A DNA stretch of 43,035 bases from a virus (IMGVR_UViG_2541047789_000007:1-43035), one strand, 5' to 3'. Counted from the stretch's first letter, positions 6,313 through 7,365 are shown. The notes: a model not told the origin generated them from the sequence alone. Made by a program: numbers and translations.

Positions 6313-7365
6313 TTATTTCCCCACCAGCTCGTTTATCTCTTTCACTGTCTGGTTAAACCGCTCTGACTCAAGCTCAACACCTAAGGCCCGACGCCCCAGC
6401 GCCATTGCTGCTTTTATTGTGGAACCGGATCCCATAAAAAAATCAGCAACCAGATCACCAGGTCGACTACTGGCATTGATTATTTGCCTGAGCATATCCG
6501 CCGGTTTCTCACACGGATGTTTACCCGGGTAGAACTGAACGGGTTTATGCATCCAGACATCGGTATAAGGCACGGAGACTGATACGGAGAAATAGCGCCG
6601 GAGAGATTTAAACTCATCCAGCAATTCAGAATATTTGCGATTCAGTGAATCATAAGATGCCACCAGCTGGTGGTGTGGTTGTTCCAGTTGTTGTTCCTGA
6701 AACTTCTCTGCCGCTATACGGGAAAACAGTGCCTGTAACTTCCGATAGTCAGCCTCATTCGGCAACTGCCACTGACTGGCACCAAACCAGTGGGAAACCA
6801 TATTTTTCTTACCTGTGGCTTCGGCAATTTGTTTTGCCGTTATACCCAGTTCGGCACGAGCATCCCTGAAATACGATATCAGCGGTGCCATTATGTGCTG
6901 TTTGAGTGCCCTTTCTTTTGCCGCATAGCCGTCACTTTTGCCGCGATATGGCCCCTGGTAATGTTCAGCAAACAGAACGCGTTCTGTGGCAGGAAAATAT
7001 GCGCGCAGACTTTCTTTATTACACCCATTCCAACGTCCGGACGGCTTCGCCCAGATGATATGGTTAAGCACGTTGAAACGTTCACGCATCATGATCTCAA
7101 TATCAGATGCCAGACGATGCCCACAGAACAGGTAAAGGCTTCCGGCAGGTTTTAACACCCGCCAGAACTGGGCCAGACAGTGGTCCAGCCACTTAAGGTA
7201 ATCTTCGTCCCCTTTCCACTGATTGTCCCAGCCGTTGGGTTTCACCTTGAAGTACGGCGGATCGGTAACAATCAGGTCAATGGAATCATCAGGCAGGGAC
7301 TGAATAAAATGCAGGCAATCAGCGTTGATTAAATCAACACTGTTTATTTTTACAGTACTTTTCAT
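6313..7365 (-). CDS. Phage DNA methyltransferase (beta-class amino-MTase; N6-adenine or N4-cytosine)
   Basis: 350 aa; N-terminal catalytic DPPY (LIVTDPPYF) and C-terminal AdoMet motif FFMGSGST. Confidence 0.85.

Follow-up and report, generated by a model that had tools for sequence, protein, structure and literature searches.

The E. coli prophage in the window analysed here (the whole stretch of DNA, 43,035 nt) encodes two intact and unrelated DNA methyltransferases. We put the probability at roughly 0.65 that these enzymes do two jobs at two times, the one as a late, offensive methylase without a recognition motif, the other as the self-marking half of a defence cassette. The first enzyme is a beta-class amino-methyltransferase of the M.EcoGII family, whose gene lies directly upstream of the lysis genes. 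The second is an alpha-class D12 methyltransferase that is encoded, together with an ABC-type ATPase, between the integrase and the attachment site. The features on which this account is built are compiled in Table 1.

Table 1. Coordinates of the prophage features discussed in the text, counted from the first nucleotide of the window.
Feature	Position	Strand	Basis or remark
Rz spanin	5075-5548	-	Pfam PF03245
Lysozyme	5533-6030	-	Pfam PF00959
S21-type holin, dual-start motif MKSMDK	6030-6245	-	Pfam PF04971, E 3.6e-35
Terminator-like element, GC-rich hairpin then T-run	6290-6306	-	in the 67-bp spacer between methylase stop and holin start
Beta-class amino-methyltransferase, M.EcoGII family, 350 aa	6313-7365	-	ORF, Pfam PF01555, motifs
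Small conserved ORF, 75 aa, just upstream of the beta-class methylase	7516-7743	-	ORF call
Promoter-like TTTACA-16-TATGCT (7924-7897), then hairpin GCCGCTGAGCGGT + T7 (7860-7848)	7848-7924	-	
Lipoprotein-like moron, 148 aa, signal sequence ...LLSATIISGC, antisense between Q and methylase	7990-8436	+	
Late antiterminator Q, Q21 family	8521-8886 (end also given as 8901)	-	Pfam PF06530, E 4e-51
Tyrosine integrase (Arm-DNA-bind_2 + Phage_integrase), PhiNP-type	18598-19764	+	
ABC-type ATPase, 577 aa from the RefSeq start, AAA_15/AAA_21	19823-21556	+	Pfam
Alpha-class D12 methyltransferase, 299 aa, PD-Lambda-5_B-like	21636-22535	+	Pfam PF02086, E 3e-19
Attachment core, 25 bp, 3' end of ssrA (tmRNA), prophage boundary	22616-22640	+	

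Late methyltransferase

The beta-class gene is an ORF with an ATG start codon, and its boundaries are exactly those under which it was first noted. Its product matches the Pfam family N6_N4_Mtase (PF01555) with an E value of 2.4e-42 and 145.8 bits (cut-off 26.7), covering profile positions 1-220 of 221. Within the protein, DPPY (residues 35-38) is followed by the central region and then by FMGSG (residues 310-314), which corresponds to the FxGxG SAM motif I. Since motif IV thus precedes motif I, the product is a beta-class, 'DPPY-first' methyltransferase, just as an earlier note on this DNA had claimed. The N- and C-terminal halves match the RsrI, MboIIA, CcrM and DpnA chains separately, and a central insert of about 130 amino acids separates these halves that align to solved beta-class enzymes. 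Catalytic death of one or both methyltransferases, considered in the same note, was checked for as well; both enzymes are intact and carry their catalytic motifs.

For the comparison with M.EcoGII the sequence of that enzyme was taken from the machine-read supplement of PMC11551740, in which a few residues are possibly misread; on this basis 281 of 349 residues are identical (81%), with 91% positives and no domain gained or lost. Region by region, identity drops from 88% in the N-terminal catalytic domain to 77% in the four-helix TRD predicted at 160-237, and it is 75% in the C-terminal part. The divergence, 19% overall, peaks in the linker/TRD region and in the C-terminal part (approximately 75% identity each). 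At the DNA level, the gene is 99.3% identical to its counterparts in phages mEp460 and Ayreon; the values for phage cdtI and for orf48 of SfV are 99% and 97%, respectively. A protein that is 90% identical to M.EcoGII is encoded in a slot with the order Q, 65-aa ORF, methylase and S21-type holin, and the order Q, small ORF, methylase and S21 holin is repeated in phages Ayreon and vB_EcoS-569R4. By both sequence and position, the gene is thus a member of the M.EcoGII family.

For M.EcoGII, methylation of adenine is independent of the sequence context (PMC5778455). No motif could be discerned for M.EcoGII, for SUPREM or for the reconstructed ancestor Anc291, and all tested ancestors retain methylation of DNA and RNA (PMC11551740). 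Because its closest characterised relatives, M.EcoGII and Anc291, methylate adenine without a recognition motif, the late enzyme probably has no 'target motif' at all, and most likely methylates adenine (N6) without sequence specificity. We infer rather than assert this non-specificity, since the protein has diverged by 19% from M.EcoGII and a site-specific relative exists, namely M.PflMI, which sits deeper in the M.EcoGII tree (PMC11551740). These points bear on an alternative in which the enzyme, despite its family, is sequence-specific or inactive in this lineage. Both the 23% divergence of the TRD region from M.EcoGII and the site-specific M.PflMI in the wider tree speak for it. Nevertheless, we regard it as very unlikely, given that non-specificity is kept in the ancestors that bracket the enzyme, i.e. 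Anc291 (approximately 88% identity to the product) and Anc284/SUPREM (69%), and that all motifs are intact. Moreover, the product's protein cluster at 90% identity contains 4060 sequences, a size that speaks for purifying selection; at E < 1e-10, 3065 homologues were found.

Context and expected timing of the late methyltransferase

The late genes are located on the minus strand at the low coordinates of the window, with the terminase at 1523-3625, and the immunity region lies near 14 kb, with a cI-like repressor at 14115-14807. The methylase gene is on the same strand as, and between, the Q21-type antiterminator Q, for which PDB entry 6p18 (Q21) is a distant match (E 1e-8), and the holin, lysozyme and Rz genes. 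The holin gene, the first of the lysis genes, follows directly downstream of the methylase. The position upstream of the lysis genes that had been described previously was therefore confirmed, and it supports the placement of the methylase in the late operon.

The 75-aa ORF just upstream of the methylase has counterparts in Ayreon, vB_EcoS-569R4 and M.EcoGII-type loci and has no family match, and the lipoprotein-like ORF has no match in Pfam or PADLOC. Judged from its sequence, the promoter-like site with the adjoining hairpin (7848-7924) represents a candidate PR'/tR'-like unit, and another hairpin with a T-rich tail is found at 8478-8459, between Q and the methylase. In a consensus scan, promoter-like sites were not enriched over shuffled sequence (7 found vs 5.1 expected), and the promoter and terminator scans gave no unambiguous PR'. 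The site equivalent to the terminator-like hairpin in the methylase-holin spacer carries a 'terminator' annotation in phage Ayreon. Two features of this region count against the two-job reading, namely this hairpin past the methylase and the antisense lipoprotein gene between Q and the methylase.

Because the beta-class gene would belong to a Q-dependent late unit directly upstream of the holin, we infer that the lysogen does not express it and that induction turns it on. M.EcoGII is unexpressed in the lysogen and harmful when expressed constitutively, and the same holds for M.EcoGI; for M.EcoGII it was proposed that the enzyme is turned on when the prophage readies itself for excision and new infection (PMC5778455). 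In the prophage studied here, RNA polymerase modified by Q would pass the terminators and transcribe the M.EcoGII-type gene together with the lysis genes. The late enzyme would then methylate a broad range of adenines in the phage DNA while it replicates and before it is packaged, so that the progeny genomes would reach their next host already shielded from many adenine-sensitive restriction systems. The cost of this broad adenine methylation would be sensitivity to methylation-dependent enzymes. An anti-restriction role of the late-operon enzyme is plausible.

Integrase-proximal methyltransferase

The D12 gene starts 1.87 kb downstream of the prophage integrase. In its product, motif I (EPYAGGAG) is located at about residues 36-43 and motif IV (DPPY) at residue 194. 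The claim that the prophage encodes two unrelated methyltransferases is thus upheld by motif order (beta versus alpha) as well as by Pfam family (PF01555 versus PF02086). A third methylase is absent from the remaining prophage ORFs of the window.

Less clear-cut is the label 'Dam-family', under which the integrase-proximal enzyme had been introduced. While the label is appropriate for the broad Pfam D12 class, it failed at the strict NCBIfam cut-off and in terms of similarity to solved Dam proteins. Against the NCBIfam model dam (TIGR00571) the enzyme reaches 54.8 bits, which is below the cut-off of 114.85. In a phmmer search of all PDB chains (E <= 10), solved Dam, T4 Dam and DpnM were not detected for the enzyme, and the only match was 7M6B, i.e. 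M.CbeI, an alpha-class N4-cytosine methylase (PMC8616854). Since LDPPYY is also present in M.CbeI, which modifies cytosine at N4, DPPY alone leaves the target base unfixed. The PADLOC model PD-Lambda-5_B (PDLC04018) matches the D12 product over its full length with an E value of 5.3e-124.

The attachment core GGTTCAACTCCCGCCAGCTCCACCA occurs a single time in the window, past the D12 methylase. Read as its reverse complement, it is identical to the attP that was defined by experiment for Citrobacter phage PhiNP (PMC6456863), and it falls within a partial match to the tmRNA 3' end (Rfam, sub-threshold, E 4.5e-8). The core was identified by inspecting the sequence, by searching Rfam permissively and by comparison with the literature; ARAGORN detected neither tRNA nor tmRNA in the window, and a search of the whole window with Rfam at gathering thresholds gave no match. 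On the 3' side of the core, the ssrA terminator (22701-22715) is followed by the P4/IntA-type integrase of the next island (22845-24086). In E. coli genomes with the same integrase, ATPase and methylase, similarity to the window ends at position ~22645. The second attachment site and the remainder of the late region fall outside the window.

Because the attachment core comes after the gene, the gene order in PhiNP is the same and similarity ends at ~22645, the D12 methylase is prophage cargo between int and attP. Both methyltransferases are therefore carried by one prophage, as had been proposed. We also considered that the D12 gene could be part of the neighbouring island; this was rejected in view of the core past the gene and of PhiNP, which packages the same block.

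ATPase partner of the D12 methyltransferase

The Pfam matches of the ATPase cover its ABC head only (AAA_15, AAA_21, SMC_N), and the C-terminal 264 residues have no Pfam match at E <= 10. Among 35 homologues, the P-loop (GKNGTSKS-type; Walker A) and the LLIDEAD segment (Walker B) are invariant. The same is true, down to approximately 50% identity, of E357, D358, D411 and D413 in the C-terminal domain of about 240 residues, an E...DxD pattern that would fit a Toprim domain. For the AlphaFold model of the protein (pLDDT 88), the best Foldseek matches are GajA, Thermus OLD and the retron effectors Eco7 and Eco8; hereby, the GajA and OLD alignments cover both domains of the model. Its C-terminal part aligns over 119-149 residues with AriB, the C-terminal region of class 2 OLD, Thermus OLD and the Toprim domain of Eco2. 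NCBI names several of the homologues 'ATP-dependent nuclease', and PADLOC gave generic matches to the ATPase head only (PtuA, AriA, GajA). We regard the ATPase as a likely OLD-like nuclease of the OLD (Toprim) family. The PD-Lambda-5_A model is not among the best PADLOC matches of the ATPase, an observation that we count against the two-job reading.

The resemblance of the head to AriA, PtuA and GajA, as well as the alignment of the C-terminal model with AriB and OLD, would also suit a cassette that serves chiefly for addiction or stabilisation, or as a PARIS-like sensor for abortive infection, without methylation-based discrimination of DNA. Here, the methylase would restrain a toxic ATPase-nuclease or act as bait, and the trigger for killing would be either phage anti-restriction proteins or the loss of the prophage. 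AriB in PARIS and P2 Old are reported to cleave tRNA (PMC12409363, PMC12445682), and the authors of PD-lambda-5 termed their system 'RM+Abi' (PMC9519451), which likewise favours such a module. We consider this alternative unlikely, as the strict co-linearity with the methylase (see below) is a hallmark of modification-based self-marking; the present data do not separate it from classical restriction-modification logic.

Pairing and genomic slots of the cassette

A scan of one genome per species yielded 80 ATPase loci, which are distributed over Gamma- and Betaproteobacteria, Bacteroidota, Mycobacterium, Listeria and others, with Acidobacteria also among the taxa. A homologue of the D12 methylase is found within 4 kb of the ATPase in 78 of these loci, usually 40-100 bp downstream and on the same strand, and in the remaining two the contig stops right after the ATPase. 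An extra ParB-like gene is present at four ATPase-methylase loci.

This pairing bears on the idea, put forward in the earlier note, of layered anti-restriction with different target motifs. In its general form, both enzymes would be stand-alone anti-restriction or epigenetic methylases, each with its own motif, that provide layered protection of the phage DNA. That two intact, unrelated enzymes are present agrees with the idea; furthermore, orphan methylases are common in phages (PMC5778455), and related prophages carry even three methylases (JJ1886). The D12 enzyme, however, almost never occurs without the ATPase, given that the two exceptions among the 80 loci are at contig ends, and it matches a component of a defence system (PD-Lambda-5_B), while the closest characterised relatives of the beta-class enzyme are motif-less. 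We therefore think it quite improbable that both enzymes stand alone, and the proposal is borne out only in part, the assignment of different motifs to the two enzymes finding no support in the form given.

The GC content of the cassette is 33%, versus approximately 50% for the prophage, and its slot changes from host to host. In Yersinia, the slot that the beta-class enzyme occupies in the window, between Q and the holin, is taken by the ATPase-methylase pair, which is encoded there on the other strand. The pair adjoins the repressor gene (cI) in P. aeruginosa prophages, and in Enterovibrio it is found beside a further gene of 506 aa. In Gallionella it is surrounded by a helicase fragment, Bro-N, DUF2130, a 595-aa N6_N4 methylase and a DUF1016/YhcG nuclease, and from this gene content the locus looks like a defence island. 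In strain L65, a related methylase and an ATPase that is 47% identical to that of the window lie between icd and int of an e14-like prophage.

Methylases of the same kind, that of L65 included, also occur in other settings, with pairwise identities of 46-57%. Strain 2015C-3107 carries a related methylase and a ParB/Srx protein just past Q in a lambdoid prophage. In strain EC6622, a related methylase is accompanied by a ParB-like protein of 501 aa, and the two are encoded between the genes for the replication endonuclease and the portal of a P2-like prophage. The D12 methylase of the window is 52% identical to the methylase that adjoins the ParB/Srx protein in a PD-lambda-5-type locus. The cassette thus occupies moron or defence hotspots of prophages, which differ between hosts. 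Taken together, the conserved pairing, the PD-Lambda-5_B match and these hotspots point to self-marking for a defence nuclease, and not to evasion of host restriction, as the role of the D12 enzyme. In the literature searched, no description of the ATPase-methylase cassette was found; the PhiNP paper says only 'ATPase' (PMC6456863).

Under the two-job reading, the cassette next to int would be expressed from the prophage in the lysogen, as cargo in the form of a restriction-modification or PD-lambda-5-type module. The D12 methylase would mark the resident DNA, and the ATPase, acting as a nuclease, would attack unmarked invading DNA or abort the infection, so that the lysogen would be guarded from competing phages.

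Occurrence and significance

Among 5426 complete E. coli genomes, 47 or more contain at least 80% of the region 1-22645 of the window in one place, with both methylases. The genomes with the same two-methylase arrangement include the ST131 strains JJ1886 and JJ1887, and the D12 gene itself is present at 95% identity or more in 85 genomes. The relative in JJ1886 has a third methylase, which is located in the nin region, and the annotation of phage cdtI contains both 'dam' and 'DNA methylase'. A methylome study of ST131 lists the putative enzyme M.Eco1886ORF14565P (PMC4659465). EC958, which also belongs to ST131, encodes an M.EcoGI homologue and a different D12-class enzyme on its prophages, and to neither of these two methylases could a detectable methylation motif be assigned in laboratory-grown cells (PMC4659465); we count this result, too, against the two-job reading.

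The finding of two methylases is hence already contained in public data, and the enzymes are of known kinds; the pairing on one prophage is real and mostly ordinary. Thousands of enterobacterial prophages contain an M.EcoGII-type gene, and sequenced and annotated examples of prophages that carry two or three methylases already exist, so that the pairing carries little weight. In practical terms, no motif is to be expected for the late enzyme in the methylome of a lysogen, and it would be premature to take the integrase-proximal enzyme for a GATC methylase, or even for an adenine methylase. The ATPase-methylase cassette is the sole element that is less charted. With its unusually strict synteny and with PD-lambda-5 as a validated relative, it is a compact candidate defence module, and it could show how OLD-type nucleases couple to DNA modification.

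Comparison with known systems

The late enzyme is most readily compared with M.EcoGII and M.EcoGI of the E. coli O104:H4 C227-11 prophages (EGT69837.1; 349 aa, compared to 350 aa here). The likeness comprises the beta-class order of motifs, approximately 81% identity over the full length and the slot of these relatives between Q and an S21-type holin.

For the integrase-proximal enzyme, the canonical Dam, T4 Dam and the Dam orphans of phages (GATC) have the Pfam D12 class, the alpha order of motifs and DPPY in common with it. Unlike canonical Dam, the enzyme remains below the dam cut-off, and GATC specificity as well as an adenine target are putative at most. Its partner shares the N-terminal ABC head with the OLD-family nucleases, i.e. 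P2 Old, Gabija GajA, the retron Eco8 effector and AriA/AriB of PARIS; Walker A and Walker B, which define the N-terminal ABC ATPase of this family, are both found in it.

The same cassette is carried by PhiNP, a viable, temperate phage that integrates into ssrA. Its gene order is xis, int, ATPase, an unannotated methylase ORF and attP, with the same 25-bp core, and its ATPase and methylase are 87% and 88% identical, respectively, to those of the window, whereas the rest of the genome differs. PhiNP has an extra, different methylase, which is annotated 'mtase_2'.

PD-lambda-5 is a validated anti-phage system from a prophage of ECOR7 and was among the broadest in its study (Vassallo et al. 2022, PMC9519451). 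Its authors describe it as a compacted prophage RM+Abi system, the cloning of which required a host deleted for the mrr-containing region; component A is a ParB/HEPN protein and component B a methyltransferase (PMC9519451). Both PD-lambda-5 and the cassette described here are two-gene cargo cassettes of prophages with a methylase of the PD-Lambda-5_B family. In contrast to PD-lambda-5, the methylase of the window is partnered by an ABC ATPase of 577 aa, which probably has a Toprim domain, instead of by a ParB/HEPN protein. A further difference is that the ATPase and D12 genes of the window are co-directional. The cassette was accordingly rejected as PD-lambda-5 proper: component B is present, and the place of component A is taken by the ABC ATPase. 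We lean, by a small degree, towards regarding it as an uncharacterised, widespread two-gene modification-dependent defence system that moves between prophage hotspots and is an effector-swapped sibling of PD-lambda-5, against the likes of which the late motif-less methylase would pre-protect the phage progeny. In such a family, the effector that accompanies a single methylase lineage may be of the ParB/HEPN kind or of the OLD type, or the two effectors may occur together.

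Tandem elements at ssrA and the surroundings of int

Directly past the ssrA remnant that bounds the prophage a CP4-57-like island begins (island start, 22845-28649), and therefore two elements stand in tandem at ssrA. Further to the right lies a YobI-like P-loop NTPase of 1279 aa, for which PADLOC gives a match to Tmn, the defence protein of Tiamat (E 2e-175). The two genes next to each other at 33370-36760 code for a retron-type reverse transcriptase of 366 aa (PADLOC RT_I-B, E 7e-93) and for an OLD-type ATPase-Toprim protein of 705 aa, with ATPase-Toprim_I-B as its PADLOC match (E 3e-226); the pair, part of the island to the right, looks like a type I-B, Eco8-like retron. 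No msr/msd RNA was identified for this candidate retron, Rfam giving no match at gathering thresholds. With the Tmn match, the island beside the prophage would therefore carry at least two further defence systems.

Features of the prophage and the adjoining island
Feature	Positions	Strand	Match or element
Lipoprotein-like ORF, 148 aa, lipobox ...ISGC	7990-8436	+	
Low-GC ORF, 296 aa, just upstream of int	17499-18389	+	
Perfect 8-bp hairpin, TGGCCACA-ATT-TGTGGCCA, then TTTT	19781-19803	+	
IntA-type integrase	22845-24086		CP4-57-like island
IS1 transposase	24722-25225		CP4-57-like island
DUF3987 protein	26172-27686		CP4-57-like island
YagK/YfjJ-family protein	27951-28649		CP4-57-like island
YobI-like P-loop NTPase, 1279 aa	29060-32899	+	PADLOC Tmn
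Adjoining retron-type reverse transcriptase and OLD-type ATPase-Toprim genes	33370-36760	-	PADLOC

Within the prophage, the hairpin lies in the gap between int and the ATPase gene, 17 bp past the stop codon of the former and 20 bp short of the start of the latter, and it could act as a terminator of int transcripts, thereby keeping expression of the ATPase-methylase cassette apart from int. The 296-aa ORF gave weak PADLOC matches alone, to Csx27/tm_4 membrane proteins (E 3e-6); what occupies its position varies among related prophages, strains 042 and JJ1886 having other genes there. In the closely related prophage of E. coli JJ1886 a third methylase, a 'phage N-6-adenine-methyltransferase' (L097 12775-13428), is found in the nin region between LexA-like and PerC-like genes; it is missing from the window.

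The cassette and the late slot in other genomes

Some species possess a three-gene set in which the D12 methylase and the ATPase are accompanied by a 500-aa ParB-like protein (comparison locus L018, 1231-5689; also L025, L045 and L093), the latter being PD-lambda-5_A-like. Since all three genes occur together, this arrangement suggests that one methylase is able to serve both effector types, the ParB-like protein and the ATPase. In about a dozen loci, mostly betaproteobacterial, a longer beta-class N6_N4 methylase follows within about 1 kb of the cassette. In Gallionella (L053, 32-9616) this enzyme has 595 aa, a DUF1016/YhcG nuclease comes after it, and upstream lie genes for Bro-N and DUF2130; the cassette appears to be nested within a larger restriction or defence locus.

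In the late region of the window, the lipoprotein-like ORF is an antisense insertion between Q and the late methylase with hairpins on either side; it has no family match and represents a moron that occupies the Q-S slot. Prophages of Yersinia enterocolitica (L011-L013) carry a Mom-like gene, another DNA-modification function, downstream of the lysis genes. Their Q-to-holin slot is filled by the ATPase-methylase cassette on the opposite strand (4001-6681); this is the slot that the M.EcoGII-type gene occupies in the window.
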